From positions 24,988-88,987 of the IMG/VR virus record IMGVR_UViG_3300021399_000133: a stretch of DNA of 64,000 nucleotides, one strand, 5' to 3'. A model generated the notes under the pieces. It did not search any database. It was not told the origin of the DNA and saw only the letters and a program-made list of their open reading frames with translations. The stretch is from a virus (Duplodnaviria; Caudoviricetes). Positions 1,383-10,988 of the stretch are shown one piece after another (position 1 is the first letter of the stretch; each line of letters starts with the position of its first letter). The translations under genes were made by a program, and so were the position numbers.

Positions 1383-1756
1383 TAACTTTTAGACAGAAAA
1401 AGACGCTGGTTCAAGACTTAATGCCGGAAGCTATTCAATACCTGAAAGATAATGGCATTGATGTAAAGATTATAACTCCGAAGGAAGCTGACGCAGTCTC
1501 TAGGGTAAACTCTAAAGCTATGGTTCTAGTCTCCTTTAAGAAAAACGAGTTGGGTTATTATCAAATACAAGTTCAAGATAAGGAGTTATATAATTACACG
1601 CAAAAGTTAATCAGAGATATTCTTAGGATGAGAATTACAAATATCGATAGAGAGCATAGAGTGATTACTGCCGAATGTGATCATAAAGGCATTGCTCTTG
1701 ATATTATTGAGGTTCTCGCTAAGAAGTATGATTTATCAGTTGTTTATAAGAAATGA
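1379..1756 (+). CDS. Hypothetical protein with FRQK leader (MITFRQKK), small alpha/beta domain
   Basis: 125-aa ORF with ATGA-type overlaps to both neighbours; leader shared with nearby genes. Confidence 0.8.
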   Translation: MITFRQKKTLVQDLMPEAIQYLKDNGIDVKIITPKEADAVSRVNSKAMVLVSFKKNELGYYQIQVQDKELYNYTQKLIRDILRMRITNIDREHRVITAECDHKGIALDIIEVLAKKYDLSVVYKK

Positions 1757-2352
1757 TTAAGTTCAGACAAAAAACTTTCTCAGAGTATGATGCAATGAGA
1801 AGTTTATATGTTGAATTGATGAAGGATAAGTTTGCAAAGCAGAAATATGGTGTTATTGATTCTAGTGTTCTTATACCAGTACTGAAGGGAAACAATATAG
1901 TCATTGAACGCTTTGTAATATCTACATCATTCGCTCATAAAGATACTTATCGGATGTACCTTAAGATTGGAGCTAAAGCTAAGTTACCTGATGAAGTTAG
2001 ATTGCCTGGGAAAACTCAATATAAGCCCATTGGCGGTATTAACTTTAATCTTAGTGGATCAACTACTCAGAAACAATTTAGTGATGAAAGTTCTACGCCT
2101 CTATTTCGTCAAAAAGTATTCGGAGGAGGTGGAGGAGATAAGAAGAAAACATTCCCACTAGTTTCAGGTAACTATCAAGGTCCTAATGTCAACTTTGGTG
2201 TAGAAGTAACTAAGTTGTTAGGTGAAGCGATTAAGTATGATAAGAGAGAGCGTAGTCTGGTGTTGGAATTTGACAGTATTGAAGATGCTATTAAAGCTCT
2301 GAATATCCTTCCTTTTGGCATTAATTATAAGATATATTTACTTAACGCATGA
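1753..2352 (+). CDS. Hypothetical protein with FRQK leader (MIKFRQKTFS) and internal motif copies
   Basis: 199-aa ORF; internal QKQFS, FRQKVFG and KKTFP in a Gly-rich loop. Confidence 0.8.
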   Translation: MIKFRQKTFSEYDAMRSLYVELMKDKFAKQKYGVIDSSVLIPVLKGNNIVIERFVISTSFAHKDTYRMYLKIGAKAKLPDEVRLPGKTQYKPIGGINFNLSGSTTQKQFSDESSTPLFRQKVFGGGGGDKKKTFPLVSGNYQGPNVNFGVEVTKLLGEAIKYDKRERSLVLEFDSIEDAIKALNILPFGINYKIYLLNA

Positions 2353-2570
2353 TGAAGATAAAAAGATTCTCTGCCACTAAAATTCTTAACACAAATATGG
2401 GTTTAGGATTTAGACGTGGGCGGAAGTATGATACTGACTTAGATCGACTGGGTAGAATGGATACTTCGCAGAGAGAACTTTCTAGAGTCAATCAGTTAGG
2501 TAGTGAAATGAGGAAACTCAGATCAGAATTAAATAATGAGAGGTTAGGAATATGGCAACATACAGACTAA
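2349..2570 (+). CDS. Small basic hypothetical protein (MMKIKRFS leader variant)
   Basis: 73-aa ORF coupled to both neighbours. Confidence 0.7.
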   Translation: MMKIKRFSATKILNTNMGLGFRRGRKYDTDLDRLGRMDTSQRELSRVNQLGSEMRKLRSELNNERLGIWQHTD

Positions 2571-2884
2571 GAAGAAAAACATTTGGTATGGCAGATGCTG
2601 GTCAAAGAGCTGCTGGTGGTGCAATGGAGGGTATTGGAAAAACAATGGACTCTAACTTGGGTGGTGTTGCTGGTGGTATAGCCGGTGCTGCAACTGTCGG
2701 CTCTGCAATAGGTGCAGGTCTTGGCTCAGCAATAGGCTCAGTTGTTCCAGTTGTAGGTACAGCAATTGGTGGTACTGTTGGTGGAGCTCTCGGTACTGGT
2801 CTCGGTTATATGGCTGGCTCTAAAGTAACTAGAGGAGTCGGTCAAGCTCTTACTGAGTCTGGTCAGGATTTACAAGCAGTTTAA
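2552..2884 (+). CDS. Glycine-zipper membrane-type protein (MATYRLRRKTFG leader)
   Basis: 110 aa, dominated by GxxxG repeats (GGVAGGIAGAATVGSAIGAGLGSAIGSVVPVVGTAIGGTVGGALGTGLG). Confidence 0.75.
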   Translation: MATYRLRRKTFGMADAGQRAAGGAMEGIGKTMDSNLGGVAGGIAGAATVGSAIGAGLGSAIGSVVPVVGTAIGGTVGGALGTGLGYMAGSKVTRGVGQALTESGQDLQAV

Positions 2885-2888
2885 TATT

Positions 2889-3953
2889 ATGATAAGGTTT
2901 AGACAGAAAAATTATAATGCGGCTGCTATTATGACTGGACTGAATGTTCTTGGTTTGGGTGCTACTGGTGCTCAAATGATTCAAGCAGATCAACAAGGAA
3001 AAGAGCAAGAGGCACAGTCAAAAGCAATGGAAGAGCAGATGAAAAGACAAAACAAAGCACTAGAACGTATTGCCCGAAATTCCGCCAAGAATCCTAGAGC
3101 CGCACAACAAGCAGCCGAAGTTGTTTCTCAAAAAGGTTTTTCTAGTAAAGGACACTATATTCTAAAGAGATTTGGTGTTCCGGCCACTGCAGTAAAGAAT
3201 CTTTTTAGCTGGAATAATATAAAAGGCTTGGGAAAAGATTTAGGCAATGTTGTTTGGAATAATAAGAAAACTATTGCTGGATGGGGAACAATGGGAGCAG
3301 GTATTGCTGGTGGTTCTTATATTGCTAATAAGGCAATTCAAAATGATATGGAGAAACATGGAATTGAATTACCTAACAACAATCAACAAAAAGCTTATTC
3401 TGCTGAAGGAACCTTAATTGGTAACTCTTTTAAAACAGGTTTAGGCAAAATTGGTGGTGTTGCTAGTGGTTTAGGTTTTGGTGCAATATCTCCAACTATG
3501 TCTTATTTATCAGAACGCCAGGCTCTTATTGATCAAGCAAACCAAACACGACAGACAGCAAATAATACTAATACGCCTCCTAAATTTAGACAGAAGCAGT
3601 ATGGAATGGCTATGCCTTTGAGGAGTATTGCTAAAGGTTTTCGTGCTTTTAAAAGAAACCCAATGCAAAGTATATTAGGAACGGCTTCTTCCTTTTCTGG
3701 AACTGGTGGAGTGAAAGGATATAACAGTTTTGCAAATAGCTTAGCAAATTCAACTAACAGTGAATTATCTCAGGCTGCAGGTAATTGGTTGAAAAATCAT
3801 AAAACTTTAGGATTAGCTGGAACAACTGTAATAGGCGGTTCAGCCCTTGGAAGTGTTTATTCAGCCGGAGATAAAGCAGTTAGAGGAACAGCTAATGCAC
3901 TTGATCCAAATGCTTTCGCTTATGAAAACTCTAAACAGCAACAAATTCAGTAA
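2889..3953 (+). CDS. Gly/Ala-rich multi-segment protein with FRQK leader (candidate internal virion protein)
   Basis: 354 aa; MIRFRQKNYN leader plus four internal motif copies separating amphipathic Gly-rich segments. Confidence 0.75.
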   Translation: MIRFRQKNYNAAAIMTGLNVLGLGATGAQMIQADQQGKEQEAQSKAMEEQMKRQNKALERIARNSAKNPRAAQQAAEVVSQKGFSSKGHYILKRFGVPATAVKNLFSWNNIKGLGKDLGNVVWNNKKTIAGWGTMGAGIAGGSYIANKAIQNDMEKHGIELPNNNQQKAYSAEGTLIGNSFKTGLGKIGGVASGLGFGAISPTMSYLSERQALIDQANQTRQTANNTNTPPKFRQKQYGMAMPLRSIAKGFRAFKRNPMQSILGTASSFSGTGGVKGYNSFANSLANSTNSELSQAAGNWLKNHKTLGLAGTTVIGGSALGSVYSAGDKAVRGTANALDPNAFAYENSKQQQIQ

Positions 3954-3956
3954 GCT

Positions 3957-5579
3957 ATGATTAAATTTAAGCAAAAAGAATATAATGAGGCTGTCGGAGT
4001 AGGAAAGAAGGTTATCAATTTAATTAAAAAGAATCCACTTCAAACGGCAAGTCTTGGAGTTGCTACTGCTGGTTTAGGTGTTCAAGTACATAGATCTACT
4101 CGAGACAGAAGCTACCAAAAAGATCAGTTAAAAGCAATGAATAACCTTACAAATTCTCTTGGTAAAGTTGACAGATCTTTTAAAGACTTAGGAAAAAAGG
4201 AAGTTGACCGAGAGAAAAAAATGGATGATATGATGAAGAAATTTAGGCTCTTTTCTATTCAGGACGGTGGTTACAAAGGAGGCAAGCGTAGTGCCGGTGG
4301 TATTCGGCCGGTTTTAGTTGGTGCTGGTGTAGGTGGAGCCCTCGGCGGAATCATGGGTGGAGTTGGTGAAAAAACTTCAATAGGCGTCGGAGCATTAATT
4401 GGTGCTGGTCTTGGAGCATTTGTTGGCTGGATGTCTAGTTTGGCCGATAAGAGTGTTTTCAATACTGGTGGATCAACCAATGCAAACTCCTATCTCCTAA
4501 TTAAAGCCATTGAGGAAGCTTATCAGCCTAATTCTTATGATGAAGATGAAACGACTATCTCTGAAACTACAACTGACGAATATGGTCACAGTAGAACAGT
4601 AACAAGAAGAACACAGAATAACAAGAAAGAGGTACCAAATCCTAGGGGTATTGTCTTTGATGTTGATGGTGACCCGAGACGTTATGTAGTGTCAGTCCTT
4701 TATACTGGTAATGTTTTGGTTATGTTCATTAATAATCCAAACAATTATGAGTTAAGAACATTGAACACCCTTCTTGACAGTTATTGCTACGCATATAAGA
4801 ACGCAGACTATTATTCGAATAAAGTTTCTAAAAATGTTTATACTGTTGATGTTAATGTTGTGGCTGGTACTGAAACCTATCTTGCTCAAAAGATAATTGA
4901 AAGTGGTATCAAGATCAATATTGTAACAGGAAACAAATTTAATACAAAATTTAGACAGAAGAATAATAGTGTTTTAACTGATACTATTACTGGGGCTACG
5001 ATTGGTGCTACTGCTGGTGGTTTTACTGGTTCTGTATTTAGAGATAAAACTAAACAAGTTTTTGGAATAAATCAGAATAATAAAAACGGTGATCAGTTAG
5101 CAGCATTGGCAGCTATTGGAACTGGTACTATTATTGGAGCTGCTCTCGGTTTCTTAGGTGGATCTATTAAGGAGGTAGCTACTAAATACAATCGTAAAAA
5201 CAGTGTTGATCAAAGACTTATGAAGGACGTTGTTGAAAACCTTAAGAAATCTAATCTTAAGGAAGGTACACAATTTACTAGAGATCCGAAACAAGCAACT
5301 ACTCTTAAGACGAAGATTAGTATTGTAATTTCTAAGGTTTCTGGTGAGCTTCGTCTTTTGGTTAACACTGTTGCAGATCCTAAACTTGAGAGATTGACTA
5401 AGCAAATGGAGAAGAATATTCCTAACACTAGCGTAGTTAATCATCATGTATCAGATAAATTTAACGATATAACTATTTCAACAATATCAGATTCTTCAGC
5501 AGATTCTGGATTAATTGCAGGCATTGCAGAATTCTATATTCGCAACGGTTACCCAGTATATCTTGTTGAAGTAGGATAA
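3957..5579 (+). CDS. Glycine-zipper plus alpha/beta-domain protein with FRQK-type leader
   Basis: 540 aa; MIKFKQKEYN leader; two glycine zippers, each followed by a globular domain; internal KKFRLFS and KFRQKNNS. Confidence 0.75.
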   Translation: MIKFKQKEYNEAVGVGKKVINLIKKNPLQTASLGVATAGLGVQVHRSTRDRSYQKDQLKAMNNLTNSLGKVDRSFKDLGKKEVDREKKMDDMMKKFRLFSIQDGGYKGGKRSAGGIRPVLVGAGVGGALGGIMGGVGEKTSIGVGALIGAGLGAFVGWMSSLADKSVFNTGGSTNANSYLLIKAIEEAYQPNSYDEDETTISETTTDEYGHSRTVTRRTQNNKKEVPNPRGIVFDVDGDPRRYVVSVLYTGNVLVMFINNPNNYELRTLNTLLDSYCYAYKNADYYSNKVSKNVYTVDVNVVAGTETYLAQKIIESGIKINIVTGNKFNTKFRQKNNSVLTDTITGATIGATAGGFTGSVFRDKTKQVFGINQNNKNGDQLAALAAIGTGTIIGAALGFLGGSIKEVATKYNRKNSVDQRLMKDVVENLKKSNLKEGTQFTRDPKQATTLKTKISIVISKVSGELRLLVNTVADPKLERLTKQMEKNIPNTSVVNHHVSDKFNDITISTISDSSADSGLIAGIAEFYIRNGYPVYLVEVG

Positions 5580-5604
5580 TTAATTTCATATAATTAATAA
5601 TCAC

Positions 5605-7947
5605 ATGGCACAATGGATTAGAACTTCTGAGCCCTATATTAAGGTTCAGGAACAAATTCGCCAAGTTGCTCTTAACCCGGTTGCTGGCGAAGATCTTATT
5701 ATCGGTGTTGTTTTGATTTCTGACGCAGGTCCAGCAGCTCCTACTCTTATTTCTAATCAGTCGGAGTTCTTGGCAACTTATACTAGTCAGGACGTTACAC
5801 GCGATTATCTTGCTTCTCTGAATATGCTTTATAGTGGTGATGATTCCACTTTGGCTTCTCGGATGTGGGCAAATGGTTATCGTCTGGCCGGTTCTAATAC
5901 GCTTTTGGTAGTTCGTGCATCAAAGGCAAAAGATACTTTCTTTGCAAAACCGCTTCAGAAGGATGATCAAAATACTTATGTACTCCGTGATGGTGAGCTC
6001 CTGAAGTCCCTGCCAAAAGTAAAACTGGTATTGGATGTAAATGGAATGTCTGCTAGTCACGAAGGTACTGGTTGGGCTATTAATATCAGCGGTGTTGGTA
6101 TTTTTGGTAATCTCACAACAGATGAAGGTGCTCAATATGACTACTATGTTAATAACTTGGTAGACTTGGTAGAGAGCTTGAATGAAAGTTCTAAGTTTTA
6201 TTCTCCCTCTTTTGAGTTCTTCACTGATGCTGCCGCTCAAGAGAAGATTGACGTAAATAGTGACTCTTCGGATGCTGATAAGGCTAAGGTTGTGTCGGTT
6301 GTATTCAATGAGCTCTATCTTGGTTCTTATGTTCTTGACACTAGTGATCAGAGAGTTCCTGACGGTTTGGCTATGATGAACTTCTGCACGGGTGGCTCTT
6401 ATACTGCTGATACTATTATTGATATTAATGGTGCAGCTTGGTCCGGTTTTGAGCCTGCCGAGTTCTATGCTATTAATGCCAATAACTCAGCTACTACTCT
6501 TAGAGTTCGTATTCGTCGTTTCAATCATGATGCAGTTGTTCAGAAGGAATTGGCAGACTCTGAGGTATCTTCACTGACAGAAAGTGGCAAGTCTCCTTAT
6601 ACTGTTTTGACTGATGTTCTTGATACTTTCACACAGAAGGGAACAGTTGAACCAAGCGACTCTATTAAGGCTCGTGACTTCTTTGAGATTGCTGTATGGG
6701 ATCCAAGTGTAAATTCTGAGGTTAGCTTCTTTAACATTGGCAATATTACTGGTCGTGGTGATATGGAAGTTAGTGAGGTTAACAGTCTTATTCAGATGAT
6801 TCAGGTATCTCTCCCTGATGACCTCCATGATCTGGGTCTTAACTACTATGATTATGTTGAGGATGATAAGAAAACAGTTTATGTATGGGAAGAGGCAGAG
6901 CTCCCAGCAGGTGCATCAGCTGAACGTAAGACTACACTCCCAACGGCAAGTGAAGCATGGGTTGGTAAGTATGTAACTATTGATAATGGTGAAACTTACT
7001 TTACTTGTGTTAGTAATGAGGATCAACCCAATGGCGCAGGTCAACTTTATGCAAATCTGACTATTGATCCTACTGAGTCTAGCATTCTTGATATTAGTGA
7101 CTCTGATTTGAAGAAGGCTTTAGATGAGATTGTACTTGATGAGGTTTATACTGTTGAAGGTCTGTCCGATCTTGGTAATACAGAGCTTTCTTTCCAGAAC
7201 TATATGGCAAATGTAGCTATCAACAGCAACTACTTCTATCCAATTTCGACTGCTAATAGTACTAACTATATGACTATTGGTAATCAAGCAACTAAGATTC
7301 CACAGGATTCTTATAAGCTTTACATGTCGGCTCCTTGGGATATCGACTCTGGTACTCTTGGTTGGAAGTATTATGCATCTCCATCAGTTCTGTATTGGGA
7401 GGCTGTTGCTAGAAACCGTAGAAACAATGAAGAGTTTGCATCTATTCTTGGTTCTAGATACGGTGTAGTTCAGTATTCTCGTCCTGTTACTGAGTTTAAT
7501 AAGAAACAGCGTGAACTCCTTCTTAGCAAGCGAGTTAATACTGTGCTTTGGAATGTTCCTACTCAAGCTTGGAATATGAATGATTGCTTTACTAAGACTT
7601 CTCAGAATAACATCATGAACGAAGATGGTAATTCTCGTCTTGGTATTAGAATTGGCAAAGCTATTCCTATTCTCCTCAGACAGTTCATTGGTCGTAAGAT
7701 TAACCAGAAGATGTGTGATGAGATGCTTAGTGTTCTTGAGTACTGGTTCAAGACTACTATTCTTCCAATGGGTATTACTGTAGATGCTTATCAGATCTTC
7801 GTACCATATAAGGAGGAATTGGCTCGTCAGAATAAACAGCAAGTAACGGTTAATGTTAGATTCGCAAGATCGTTGAAGTATGTAAACGTTTATGAGGACT
7901 ACTATGATGTTGGCATGGATGTTTCTACAGACTATCACAATCTTTAA
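5605..7947 (+). CDS. Contractile tail sheath protein (paralog 1)
   Basis: 780 aa. N-terminal PTLISNQSEFLATY; C-terminal KKQRELLLSKRVNTV...SRLGIRI...VTVNVRFARSLKYVNV typical of sheath C-terminal domains; followed by a terminator-like hairpin. Confidence 0.85.
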   Translation: MAQWIRTSEPYIKVQEQIRQVALNPVAGEDLIIGVVLISDAGPAAPTLISNQSEFLATYTSQDVTRDYLASLNMLYSGDDSTLASRMWANGYRLAGSNTLLVVRASKAKDTFFAKPLQKDDQNTYVLRDGELLKSLPKVKLVLDVNGMSASHEGTGWAINISGVGIFGNLTTDEGAQYDYYVNNLVDLVESLNESSKFYSPSFEFFTDAAAQEKIDVNSDSSDADKAKVVSVVFNELYLGSYVLDTSDQRVPDGLAMMNFCTGGSYTADTIIDINGAAWSGFEPAEFYAINANNSATTLRVRIRRFNHDAVVQKELADSEVSSLTESGKSPYTVLTDVLDTFTQKGTVEPSDSIKARDFFEIAVWDPSVNSEVSFFNIGNITGRGDMEVSEVNSLIQMIQVSLPDDLHDLGLNYYDYVEDDKKTVYVWEEAELPAGASAERKTTLPTASEAWVGKYVTIDNGETYFTCVSNEDQPNGAGQLYANLTIDPTESSILDISDSDLKKALDEIVLDEVYTVEGLSDLGNTELSFQNYMANVAINSNYFYPISTANSTNYMTIGNQATKIPQDSYKLYMSAPWDIDSGTLGWKYYASPSVLYWEAVARNRRNNEEFASILGSRYGVVQYSRPVTEFNKKQRELLLSKRVNTVLWNVPTQAWNMNDCFTKTSQNNIMNEDGNSRLGIRIGKAIPILLRQFIGRKINQKMCDEMLSVLEYWFKTTILPMGITVDAYQIFVPYKEELARQNKQQVTVNVRFARSLKYVNVYEDYYDVGMDVSTDYHNL

Positions 7948-8095: not shown

Positions 8096-8845
8096 ATGGA
8101 TAAAGTCTTATTAACTGATCTTAAGAGGAAAGTATTTATTCGTACCTCTTTGATCGCTATTCCCTCTCTCGATGAAATTCTGGGGTTGAATGATTATCTT
8201 TCCGCAGATGAGATCCTGTTGGAAATATTTAAGAAAGCATTGAGAGAGTATGAAAACACGGTTCCTTTAATCCTTGAAATGAAAATTAACAAGGAGCAGA
8301 TGAGCACGTGTTATGGTATGGATGGATTCTTTGAAGTAAAATCTAACTTTACCCTATGGCTGGACTGTATGATATCGGAAGACCAGATTATTCTAGTTCC
8401 TAATTCTCTTCCACAATGGAGAATCTGTAGTAATGGACTTGGAACTTCCTCTTATCCTACTCCTGGCGCATGGACTTATTTTACTGAGTATAGAAAACCT
8501 TATCTCTTCATGGGGGATATGCCATCTGAGTACCAATTTTTTATGAGAGGTATCTGTTCTAGACCTATTGTACCCGACTTTAGACCAGATAAAACATTTA
8601 ATCCTGATTCTCAAAAAGCCGCTATCTATTGGCTTGATGTAGAGAATGGAGCAAGAGGTAATTTCTTTATGGACCTGGTAATGTGTCATGTATTAGACTA
8701 TATCAGACAGTTGAAAGCCTCTATAACATTACCAACTATGAGTGTAGATGTACTAGGAAACGTTGATGCTGCCTATCAGGATCTTAGACAAAGAACTGAG
8801 GCTTACATCTTACAATCTAGCTGGTATGGGGAACTTTTATACTAA
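8096..8845 (+). CDS. Putative neck/head-tail adaptor protein (T4 gp13-like)
   Basis: 249 aa; ILLEIFKKALREYENTVP helix pattern, size and position in the neck module. Inference. Confidence 0.45.
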   Translation: MDKVLLTDLKRKVFIRTSLIAIPSLDEILGLNDYLSADEILLEIFKKALREYENTVPLILEMKINKEQMSTCYGMDGFFEVKSNFTLWLDCMISEDQIILVPNSLPQWRICSNGLGTSSYPTPGAWTYFTEYRKPYLFMGDMPSEYQFFMRGICSRPIVPDFRPDKTFNPDSQKAAIYWLDVENGARGNFFMDLVMCHVLDYIRQLKASITLPTMSVDVLGNVDAAYQDLRQRTEAYILQSSWYGELLY

Positions 8846-8852
8846 GTTTATA

Positions 8853-9377
8853 ATGATAGTACAAAGACAAAGATGTTATACGGGCCTAGTAAAGAAAGTT
8901 TCGGCAAAGACTCAACGAAGTATATTAAATAAAGCTGAACAATTTTTTAAATCTAAGCCCGGCCAAACATATCTCAAACATCAACTAAAAGCAAGAGAAT
9001 CTGCCCTAGGAAAAGAACTATTAAAAAGATCTGGTAATGTAGAGTCTGGTATGGCTACATTAAGTGGAATAGTAAAGGGGGCTCCATATAATCCAGGAAA
9101 GACTACTAAAGAATTGATTGGTTATGGAATTAAACATCCAGAAGTAGCCTTTGGAGAAGCCGCAGACAAAGCGTTAGGTGTAATAGTGCCCGCCTATAAT
9201 GCTTCACCAGTACCCGTTGGAAAAGCTATTGCATTTGCTTATCCCACTAAAAATCGATATTTTAGATTGGCCGGTCAAAGATGGAATACAGGTGGCGCAG
9301 GAAGAGTCGTTGAACAAGGAATTAACTCAGCCGCTTTGAGTGCTGGGAGACTAGGAAATTCAATACCAATGTTATGA
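8853..9377 (+). CDS. Basic Gly/Ala-rich protein with leader variant MIVQRQRCYT
   Basis: Track ORF 8763..9377. ATG at 8853 follows the upstream stop (8845) and gives the family leader, so it is the likelier start. Confidence 0.7.
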   Translation: MIVQRQRCYTGLVKKVSAKTQRSILNKAEQFFKSKPGQTYLKHQLKARESALGKELLKRSGNVESGMATLSGIVKGAPYNPGKTTKELIGYGIKHPEVAFGEAADKALGVIVPAYNASPVPVGKAIAFAYPTKNRYFRLAGQRWNTGGAGRVVEQGINSAALSAGRLGNSIPML

Positions 9378-10615
9378 TTAAATTTAGACAAAAACAGTAT
9401 ACAATTCAAGAAGGTCATTATACTGGACCTAAAGATATTGATAAAGTCCCTGGCGCAGTAGAAGTAATAGCAAAGACGGCTGGGGCAGGAGCAGGCCTTG
9501 GAGCTGTTGTATCGACAGTTCTTAAAGATACCTCTATGATTGAAGGTGCATTGACAGGAGGTAAATGGGGAGCCGTTGGTGGTGTTCTTCTTAAGCTCTT
9601 TCTCAATTATCTTCACAACCCAATGACAAGAGTTAAGTATCAAGAGGTAGATAAAAACATTCGTCGATCTTTTGGTGTATTTCAAGTTTCTGGTGTAACA
9701 GTCGGTGATTCTATTTCAAAGAGAGCTAGTATTGATGAGAAGTTTAGTTTTAATGATAGGAACGTAACTTCCTATAAACTCAACTTTGCAGTGGCTGATG
9801 ATACTATTACTATGTACACTTTTGGAATGACTAATAAAGAGCTGGTGGATACTTCTAACATTCTTGATTACTATACTAAAAAATATTCAGGTATGAGTTA
9901 TTCATCTAAGTTGTTAAACCAGAAGATGAATTCTTATGCTGTTGATATAGTATTCACTAACTATCAGGTCATTTCTAATTTTATCCTGGAGTTGTCTGAA
10001 AAGTTGCTTACTAAGATTAATCTCCTCGACAACAAAGTAATAGTAACAAATCGCCTTGCATCAACTCTTCCCGCAGATTTAGAGGATGAAGAGAAGACAT
10101 TTTCAGAACCACAAGCCCTTAACAAATATGACTTGATGAAGGTTTTAGGTAAGGGAGGTGCTCAGGCTCTTGGAAACATTAAGCAGGGTTTCAATGCTTC
10201 TATGGGATTTGCTTTACTTGGTATGATTCAGGAGGGTCTTAAGAAGATTGGTATGGATGACCTAGTTAAATCAGGAATGCCAGCACCACGTGAAGCCTTT
10301 GGTAATTCATATCTTAAGGATGCTCTCAATAAACTTTACTATATTGAGGGAGTTCATTATACGATAGGTGACAAGACTGCTCCAGATAACATCTCTATGG
10401 TTAACGGTTTGTTTATTGTCACTATTCAGAAAGACGACAAGAAGAAAGTTGATGCAGTAGATAATAATTTCTATAAAGCTGCCCAAAGGAGTATCAAGAG
10501 GACGGATTCAGGAAAGGTTATTGTCTATACTTATTCAATTAGGTCCAGACAGGAGATGGAATTCTTGTTAAAGAAACTCATGTCAACTAAAATAACCTTT
10601 AATATATTTGAGTGA
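9374..10615 (+). CDS. Glycine-zipper plus alpha/beta-domain protein with FRQK leader; paralog of 3957..5579
   Basis: 413 aa; MIKFRQKQYT. Domain pattern M....EL.....LD.Y...Y....Y.S......Y.VD and L.K....EG..[FY]T are shared with 3957..5579. Confidence 0.75.
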   Translation: MIKFRQKQYTIQEGHYTGPKDIDKVPGAVEVIAKTAGAGAGLGAVVSTVLKDTSMIEGALTGGKWGAVGGVLLKLFLNYLHNPMTRVKYQEVDKNIRRSFGVFQVSGVTVGDSISKRASIDEKFSFNDRNVTSYKLNFAVADDTITMYTFGMTNKELVDTSNILDYYTKKYSGMSYSSKLLNQKMNSYAVDIVFTNYQVISNFILELSEKLLTKINLLDNKVIVTNRLASTLPADLEDEEKTFSEPQALNKYDLMKVLGKGGAQALGNIKQGFNASMGFALLGMIQEGLKKIGMDDLVKSGMPAPREAFGNSYLKDALNKLYYIEGVHYTIGDKTAPDNISMVNGLFIVTIQKDDKKKVDAVDNNFYKAAQRSIKRTDSGKVIVYTYSIRSRQEMEFLLKKLMSTKITFNIFE

Positions 10616-10616
10616 T

Positions 10617-10988
10617 ATGGTTATTCTACGGCAAAAAATTTATTCACAGAAAAAGACAGCAATGATCAGTCGAATTACAAACAAATTGGATAGAGAGAGA
10701 ATTGAGGATTATGATGTTTATGATTATGTTCCAAAAGATTCTATCTCAGTTACTGGTGATCTTGATAATTTTGCTATTTATCTACCCAGGGAATTTGAAT
10801 ATAGTCAGTATAGGATTGATGATAAGATTCGCTCCTTGGCACCACACATTAGAACAACTACTATTTCGGAGCGTGGTTTCTTTATTATGAAACTTTCCTC
10901 CAAGCTTACAGAAGATCAGCTATATAAATTAATTAAGTTTATTATAGCCGAAGAGGAATTCTGTGTTATAGTAGATATGGACGAATAA
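10617..10988 (+). CDS. Hypothetical alpha/beta protein with leader MVILRQKIYS
   Basis: Track ORF starts at TTG 10608; ATG 10617 gives the family leader. Confidence 0.75.
   Translation: MVILRQKIYSQKKTAMISRITNKLDRERIEDYDVYDYVPKDSISVTGDLDNFAIYLPREFEYSQYRIDDKIRSLAPHIRTTTISERGFFIMKLSSKLTEDQLYKLIKFIIAEEEFCVIVDMDE

Follow-up and report, generated by a model that had tools for sequence, protein, structure and literature searches.

Internal copies of a shared N-terminal tag as probable prohead-protease sites in head-module proteins of an uncultured jumbo phage

Four open reading frames (ORFs) of an uncultured phage (Duplodnaviria; Caudoviricetes; IMG/VR record IMGVR_UViG_3300021399_000133) carry in their interior copies of a short peptide that also heads neighbouring head-module proteins as an N-terminal tag. 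ORFs 1753, 2889, 3957 and 9374 are named for their first positions in the 64,000-nucleotide window analysed here, which spans 24988-88987 on a virus contig of 88,987 bp whose completeness is estimated at ~24%. Because the pattern matches head maturation in phage T4, the internal copies are read as protease cut sites; they are probably sites of the phage's own prohead protease of the T4 gp21 type, cutting after Phe or Tyr, with the ORFs as its precursors. Under the predicted rule, P3 is basic, P1 is Phe or Tyr and P1' is small (Ser, Gly or Ala), and the cut falls after the aromatic residue.

By analogy with the T4 capsid-targeting sequence, the tag would bring about two dozen head-module proteins into the core of the prohead and would then be removed; its hydrophobic-[KR]-Q part may serve targeting and its core cutting, as in T4. 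ORFs 1753, 2889, 3957 and 9374 would be cut inside the prohead into two to five pieces, predicted as residues 10-109, 110-123 and 124-199 for ORF 1753; 10-84, 85-95, 96-170, 171-238 and 239-354 for ORF 2889; 10-99 and 100-540 for ORF 3957, whose K-N-N-S junction is probably no longer cut; and 10-243 and 244-413 for ORF 9374. Below, a slash within a motif marks the predicted bond, loci of relatives bear L-numbers, and G001 denotes a complete 353-kb relative.

Distribution of the tag and its internal copies

The tag consists of nine residues (Met, hydrophobic, Lys/Arg, hydrophobic, Arg/Lys, Gln, Lys, any residue, Phe/Tyr) followed by a small or polar residue, and ~22 ORFs of the contig, encoding head-module proteins, begin with it or with a second version based on LKRKxF. 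At the level of sequence, unrelated head-module proteins share this short N-terminal tag. The second leader type (M-A-T-Y-R-L-K/R-R-K-x-F) heads small glycine-zipper proteins at window 2552-2884 and, just upstream of the window, at genome 24528-25283. In G001, 22 of 26 tag hits are clustered at 251-294 kb of the 353 kb, the remaining four being unlike the tag. A signal-peptide reading was rejected, many tagged proteins (ORF 1753 and the scaffold among them) having no hydrophobic segment after the tag. The ORF listed at window 8763-9377 starts with TTG and reads M-I-V-Q-R-Q-R-C-Y-T, a tag-like string, from residue 31 onward; the true start of this gene is probably ~8853, and its G001 homologue (278093-278647) begins with the tag MIILRQKEY.

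A preliminary description of the window had listed ten internal motifs, all of which were recovered in the ORFs, frames and positions given for them (Table 1), and its observation that the motif recurs within ORFs at domain boundaries is borne out by coordinates, shuffles and linker location. The string F[RK]QK occurs eight times in plus-strand coding frames of the window, always between 1388 and 9383; five copies belong to the opening residues of an ORF, and the other three lie inside ORFs 1753, 2889 and 3957, where 0.02 are expected (0/20,000 shuffles; Poisson 1e-6), with no internal copy in the other 27,493 residues of the contig's proteins. For a loose core defined as [RK]-x-[FY]-[STG], with expected counts taken from composition-preserving shuffles, the four ORFs together hold 10 sites vs 3.6 expected (P = 0.004), of which ORF 2889 has four (0.59 expected). 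Enrichment is confined to the head module: 49 sites were observed inside head-module proteins of the contig vs 22.6 expected (0/500 shuffles), and 31 vs 32.4 in the rest of it, while G001 gave 54 vs 27.4 in its head module (0/300 shuffles) and 203 vs 186.6 elsewhere.

The cut-site rule first proposed, K-x-[FY] followed by [SG], fails for two of the listed motifs, KKTFP, where Pro follows the aromatic residue and cleavage is unlikely, and KFRQKNNS, which has no aromatic residue; because relatives often have Ala in the position following the aromatic one, the rule was widened to [RK]-x-[FY] then Ser, Gly or Ala. No Glu occupies a fixed position in the leaders, and the element that leaders share with conserved linker sites is [RK]-x-[FY] plus a small residue. 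Leader codons vary synonymously, so that the peptide, and not the DNA, is under selection; together with the position of internal copies in linkers, this variation rules out a DNA-level repeat or translation signal.

Protease, scaffold and capsid proteins

Head genes run in the order protease, small Zn-ribbon protein, scaffold, capsid. In its AlphaFold2 (AF2) model, the candidate protease has a confident N-domain (residues 1-180), a linker with a predicted local distance difference test score (pLDDT) <50 (181-255) and a helical C-domain. On this model the phage encodes a gp21-fold protease, because the top PDB match of the N-domain is T4 gp21 (5JBL; probability 1.00, target template modelling score 0.55, E = 2e-4); the next PDB matches, unrelated helical proteins, lie well behind. 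The motif stands at the protease's own modelled domain border, with four core sites in the linker (residues 189-255) in every relative that has the gene as a single ORF. Residues H49, S135, D112 and D161 are invariant in 12 homologues and are candidate catalytic residues; the protease alignment, used as a profile against PDB sequences, had no match at E <= 10. The protease homologue is split into two or three ORFs in L003, L037 and L054 (~5000-6650 of each locus) and intact in others; the broken forms could reflect an insertion or intron, a frameshift, or misassembly.

The strongest carriers of the core, the protease included, are classic prohead-protease substrates. The acidic scaffold has 10 core sites vs 0.27 expected and 11-19 in relatives, and two occur in the capsid protein, YAKMF/S near residue 37 and LQKTF/S near residue 60, in 18/18 relatives examined. 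The capsid-gene assignment is suggested by a weak match, the sole one in a tblastn search of GenBank phages, to an Escherichia-phage gene annotated as putative capsid (26.7% identity, E = 1e-6). Between protease and scaffold, a 286-aa protein (genome 19838-20698; L002:1838-2698) bears a Zn-ribbon motif and two N-terminal tag copies, with 4-9 internal core sites in all relatives.

Gene fusion and fission at tags

With a cut site in the tag itself, as predicted, fusion or splitting of tagged genes would leave the mature products unchanged, and fused and split states do coexist among relatives, for the three modules of ORF 3957 and for ORF 9374 with its downstream neighbour, the breaks falling exactly at tags. 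By sequence comparison, ORF 3957 unites three tagged modules, A (residues 1-99), B (100-330) and C (331-540), each with a gene of its own in most relatives. Module C is in most relatives a gene starting M-I-K-F-R-Q-K-D-F-S, and the internal T-K-F-R-Q-K-N-N-S matches the N-termini of separate C genes column for column in at least 11 distinct relatives. Module B is a separate gene in L068 (MVKFRLKNFS-IQDG) and L070 (MIKFRQKEFS-IQEG), with whose N-termini the internal M-M-K-K-F-R-L-F-S-I-Q-D-G of ORF 3957 aligns; the A/B junction, as read from this alignment, is the retained start and leader of a formerly separate gene. In L067 the three modules are fused as here and neither internal tag has decayed (the A/B copy reads KFRNKLFS); L003, L037, L047 and L078 have A fused to C via an internal Met and an intact tag; and in L049, L054 and L060, A and C are two genes. 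The separate genes start at the tag exactly where the internal copies of ORF 3957 lie.

Both junctions of ORF 3957 fall, in its AF2 model, within segments of pLDDT <50 (96-172 and 290-337) between folded modules, and the C-terminal alpha/beta domain has pLDDT >90. By hhalign, module B is a paralogue of module C (probability 94.5%, E = 8e-8), and the two probably stay joined, because KFRQKNNS has lost its aromatic residue; this copy is probably a relic only, unlikely to be cut. The alpha/beta domains (window 5217-5579, residues 421-540; window 4650-4865, residues 232-302) are sandwiches of beta-beta-alpha type, for which fold searches returned generic two-layer sandwiches (eIF1/SUI1, Prp/DUF464 and designed proteins) at Z ~6-8, inside the tool's stated noise range. 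No enzymatic reading of these domains is offered because they have no conserved Cys or His, and for the same reason the C modules are not taken for Prp-like enzymes.

ORF 9374 comprises a B-like module, a linker and a C-like module, its second half aligning with module C of ORF 3957 (hhalign probability 70%, E = 4e-5). The internal site reads [KR]-x-[FY]-S in 6/6 aligned relatives, inside a linker that is otherwise variable, and no relative examined has ORF 9374 itself split. A 535-aa protein of G001 (278667-280274) joins the homologues of ORF 9374 and of the next tagged gene (10617-10988) via an internal FKKKKLF/S. The backbone of the capsid-protein tree is not resolved, the number of fusion events per form is not separable and a single origin is possible; the claim made here is of three distinct junction events, without recurrence.

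Conserved internal sites in ORFs 1753 and 2889

Every relative examined has the ORF 1753 homologue as one gene (178-250 aa, 36-61% identity), in which the internal sites lie in a linker of extremely variable length and sequence between two conserved domains. Despite this hypervariability the column of F109 is aromatic in 75% of 20 sequences, with a small residue next in 85%, and at F123 the same sequences have a basic P3 in 85%, an aromatic P1 in 85% and a small P1' in 55%, vs 35% for the flanks (the mean top-residue frequency of 20 neighbouring reference columns).

The ORF 2889 family, at 23-35% identity, is likewise a single gene in all relatives examined. Among 19 sequences, Y238 lies in the most constant site, with a basic P3 in 100%, an aromatic P1 in 100% and a small P1' in 95% (flanks 18%); the corresponding values are 84%, 68% and 95% at Y170 (flanks 44%), 47%, 84% and 95% at F84 (flanks 35%), and 58% for each of the three positions at F95 (flanks 32%). 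The F95 site, which resembles the second leader type LKRKxF and not FRQK, is present in approximately half of relatives in forms such as ITLKRKTF/A, RRKLF/A and NLKRKLF/G. Extra segments are present in two homologues, L058:15595-16941, where tag-like motifs (MTKFRKKIFS ... YEKSFG) flank them, and L067:14975-16687, which has an internal NIKFRQKIYV; from these sequences, modules seem to be gained or lost at tags in this family too.

Of the two origins considered in the preliminary description, relics of fused genes hold for the ORF 3957 modules and for ORF 9374 with its neighbour, all separate in relatives; ORFs 1753 and 2889, for which no split homologues were found, do not fit this origin. Its other proposal, processing sites, gains indirect support from the core in the scaffold, protease linker and capsid N-terminus, from the conserved sites and from the modelled gp21 fold, and does not extend to KFRQKNNS and KKTFP, both unlikely to be cut. 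Internal copies are retained in homologues, the sites of ORFs 1753, 2889 and 9374 being kept across relatives at 23-60% identity. The expected placement in disordered linkers holds by AF2 for the ORF 3957 junctions, and alignment places the sites of ORFs 1753 and 9374 in variable linkers.

Judged as polyproteins, ORF 3957 (by AF2) and ORFs 1753 and 9374 (by alignment) have several folding modules with flexible linkers, and the modules occur as separate genes for ORF 3957 (A, B and C) and ORF 9374/10617, and not for ORFs 1753 and 2889. The motif stands at the A/B junction of ORF 3957 and in the linkers of ORFs 9374, 1753 and 2889; the B/C junction reads K-N-N-S.

Table 1. Precursor ORFs, internal motif copies and associated genes (window positions unless marked; slash, predicted bond)
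Feature	Position	Strand	Residues	Description
ORF 1753	1753..2352	+	199 aa	tag MIKFRQKTF/S; two conserved domains
QKQF/S (F109)	2068..2082	+	106-110	ORF 1753; core site, start of linker
FRQKVF/G (F123)	2104..2124	+	118-124	ORF 1753; leader-like site in linker
KKTFP	2143 (start)	+	131-135	ORF 1753
ORF 2889	2889..3953	+	354 aa	tag MIRFRQKNY/N; Gly-rich amphipathic segments split by four internal sites
SQKGF/S (F84)	3126..3143	+	80-85	ORF 2889; internal site
YILKRF/G (F95)	3156..3176	+	90-96	ORF 2889; internal site
QQKAY/S (Y170)	3384..3401	+	166-171	ORF 2889; internal site
KFRQKQY/G (Y238)	3582..3605	+	232-239	ORF 2889; leader-like site
ORF 3957	3957..5579	+	540 aa	modules A, B and C
KKFRLF/S	4236..4256	+	94-100	ORF 3957; A/B junction, two Met codons (ATG ATG) directly before
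KFRQKNNS	4947..4970	+	331-338	ORF 3957; B/C junction, relic leader, P1 aromatic missing in this genome
ORF 9374	9374..10615	+	413 aa	tag MIKFRQKQY/T; two modules and linker
EKTF/S (F243)	10091..10105	+	240-244	ORF 9374; variable linker between modules
Next tagged gene	10617..10988	+		tag MVILRQKIY/S
Prohead protease candidate	genome 18606-19835			~6.4 kb upstream of window; AF2 model

Weighing the evidence

Several points weigh against cleavage of the internal copies by a phage prohead protease. All characterised gp21-type phage proteases, to our knowledge, cut after Glu, and an aromatic P1 would therefore be unprecedented for the gp21 fold among phages; the candidate protease, moreover, has no profile match to any protease family in Pfam or PHROG. 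The internal copy KFRQKNNS has drifted, and internal copies are therefore not always under selection; ORF 3957 by itself shows no loose-core enrichment (1 vs 1.26 expected), and the second ORF 1753 site is missing in L055, L057 and L069. Split homologues were found neither for ORF 2889, in a search for shorter forms, nor for ORF 1753, for which only truncated-looking fragments from contigs of <=3.2 kb were recovered. From sequence we infer cleavage, the exact bond and the responsible enzyme, and likewise capsid targeting by the tag and the separate action of the fragments.

An uncut docking or targeting peptide, binding for example the acidic scaffold repeats or the portal, would leave the internal copies as inert scars of fusion or duplication, and is an unlikely account. 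The drifted KFRQKNNS of this genome is indeed scar-like, the extended hydrophobic-[KR]-Q part, found in leaders and three internal copies and absent at scaffold sites, may serve binding, and targeting and processing determinants are separable within the T4 capsid-targeting sequence (PMC9026906); yet docking leaves unexplained the 10-19 copies in scaffolds, the four in the protease linker and the two in the capsid N-terminus, and ORFs 1753, 2889 and 9374 conserve their internal sites though they have no split homologues.

That the sites are cut by a host protease, as by Prp with Staphylococcus phage 80alpha, is quite improbable. The tag resembles the 80alpha leader, which is likewise short, N-terminal and ends in Phe before a small residue (PMC5744158), and a host Prp is possible; however, the gene for the phage's own modelled gp21-fold protease adjoins those for scaffold and capsid and has these sites in a cluster, and no Prp (PF04327) match was found at E <= 1 in the contig or in G001. 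Many internal scaffold cuts are typical of prohead proteases, whereas 80alpha is described with N-terminal Prp cuts only (PMC5744158).

Internal translation starts of nested genes, giving long and short forms of each protein, have very little probability. The ATG ATG before the tag at the A/B junction of ORF 3957 and the Met before the internal tag in the fused forms of L003, L037 and L047 would suit such starts, but no start codon is present at FRQKVFG, KFRQKQYG, KFRQKNNS, QQKAYS or EKTFS, so that at most the A/B junction could be explained, and the scaffold, capsid and protease sites would be left unaccounted for. A by-product of chance or composition in low-complexity linkers rich in Lys, Phe, Ser, Gly and Gln, which the shortness of K-x-[FY]-[SG] and the unenriched ORF 3957 might invite, is ruled out by shuffles that never reach the observed counts and by site positions conserved across relatives at 23-60% identity, there being no enrichment outside the head module.

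Cleavage by the phage's own gp21-type protease is the reading preferred here. A broader proposal is held only tentatively, that the tag is a self-contained cassette for loading and release, that any tagged gene of this jumbo-phage clade could therefore be joined to, parted from or moved beside another with unaltered mature products, that the cargo recombines freely, in part as true polyproteins, and that the protease switched from Glu to an aromatic P1. A literature search found no report of the motif or of a prohead protease with an aromatic P1.

The phage and its relatives

Relatives of the capsid protein (63-85% identity) were found on 78 IMG/VR loci, on contigs of up to ~400 kb, one being the complete genome G001 with terminal repeats, and the phage is a member of an uncultured jumbo-phage clade. 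No cultured relative was found among GenBank phages by tblastn with the capsid protein and the 780-aa product of ORF 5605, the latter giving no match. Scans of ORFs 1753, 2889 and 3957 and their neighbours against Pfam and PHROG returned glycine-zipper matches only, and the upstream head genes, scanned likewise, had no protease, scaffold, capsid or portal match. For the 780-aa protein, which is sheath-like (window 5605-7947), tblastn matches are broken by gaps of 150-700 nt in many relatives (for example, L055 14598-16988 and L003 17539-20017), which suggests variable inserts or intervening sequences.

Implications

If correct, the proposed processing would add a new specificity (basic-x-aromatic, then small) to capsid proteases of the gp21/assemblin fold, and would provide a readout, from sequence alone, of packaged and probably ejected proteins in a large clade of uncultured gut and rumen jumbo phages (350-400 kb). 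It would also represent a polyprotein-like gene organisation evolving in a double-stranded DNA (dsDNA) phage, with natural experiments in fusion and fission. The tag could be tried as a capsid-loading handle in laboratory phages, as the T4 targeting sequence has been.

Comparison with known systems

The system works like the head maturation of T4 and phiKZ but departs from it in two features. A gp21/assemblin-fold protease is present, by its AF2 model, next to the scaffold and major capsid genes; a cleavage motif after Glu is absent, the P1 predicted from sequence being aromatic, as is sequence-profile membership in a known prohead-protease family.

In T4, internal proteins bear a capsid-targeting sequence of 10 residues that ends in a gp21 site, the scaffold is cut to pieces, ~65 residues are removed from the capsid protein, and gp21 is thought to cleave itself (PMC9026906). 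The likeness extends to a short (~10-residue) N-terminal peptide with a cut site, common in T4 to unrelated small basic head proteins (IPI-III and Alt); to the scaffold (gp22), cut at many sites, and the capsid protein (gp23), which loses roughly 60 N-terminal residues, both of whose counterparts here hold core sites; and to sites adjoining the protease's own catalytic domain, in an enzyme whose modelled fold matches gp21. The predicted cut here follows Phe or Tyr with a basic P3, whereas T4 cuts at L/I-x-E; about two dozen genes are tagged, compared with a handful in T4; full tags inside proteins mark gene fusions, which are not described for T4 in PMC9026906; and the phage protease has no sequence-profile similarity to gp21.

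Many head proteins of phages phiKZ and SPN3US are processed, often at several copies of the motif (PMC10052503). These systems (proteases gp175 and gp245, respectively) share with the present one a jumbo phage with many processed head or internal proteins, paralogous head families and the possibility of several motif copies per substrate (PMC10052503, PMC9026906). Their proteases, in contrast, cut at S/A/G-x-E and mostly remove long N-terminal propeptides (111-254 residues), and neither a shared 9-residue leader nor gene fusion at tags is described for them in PMC10052503 or PMC9026906.

The capsid and scaffold proteins of 80alpha lose 13-14 N-terminal residues at an F/A bond through the host L27-processing protease Prp (PMC5744158). 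A short N-terminal extension ending in Phe, then a small residue, on non-homologous virion proteins is common to both systems (PMC5744158), whereas in 80alpha a cysteine protease of the host, which acts on ribosomal protein L27 as well, makes the cuts and only N-terminal sites are involved; here a modelled gp21-fold protease is present in the phage, in which a Prp gene was not found.

As in the polyproteins of RNA viruses and retroviruses, several folding products would be encoded per ORF, with linkers that carry the motif of a viral protease. Unlike those polyproteins, the putative ones here would be processed inside a dsDNA phage prohead, fused and unfused forms coexist among close relatives, and the predicted cut site doubles as an N-terminal tag.

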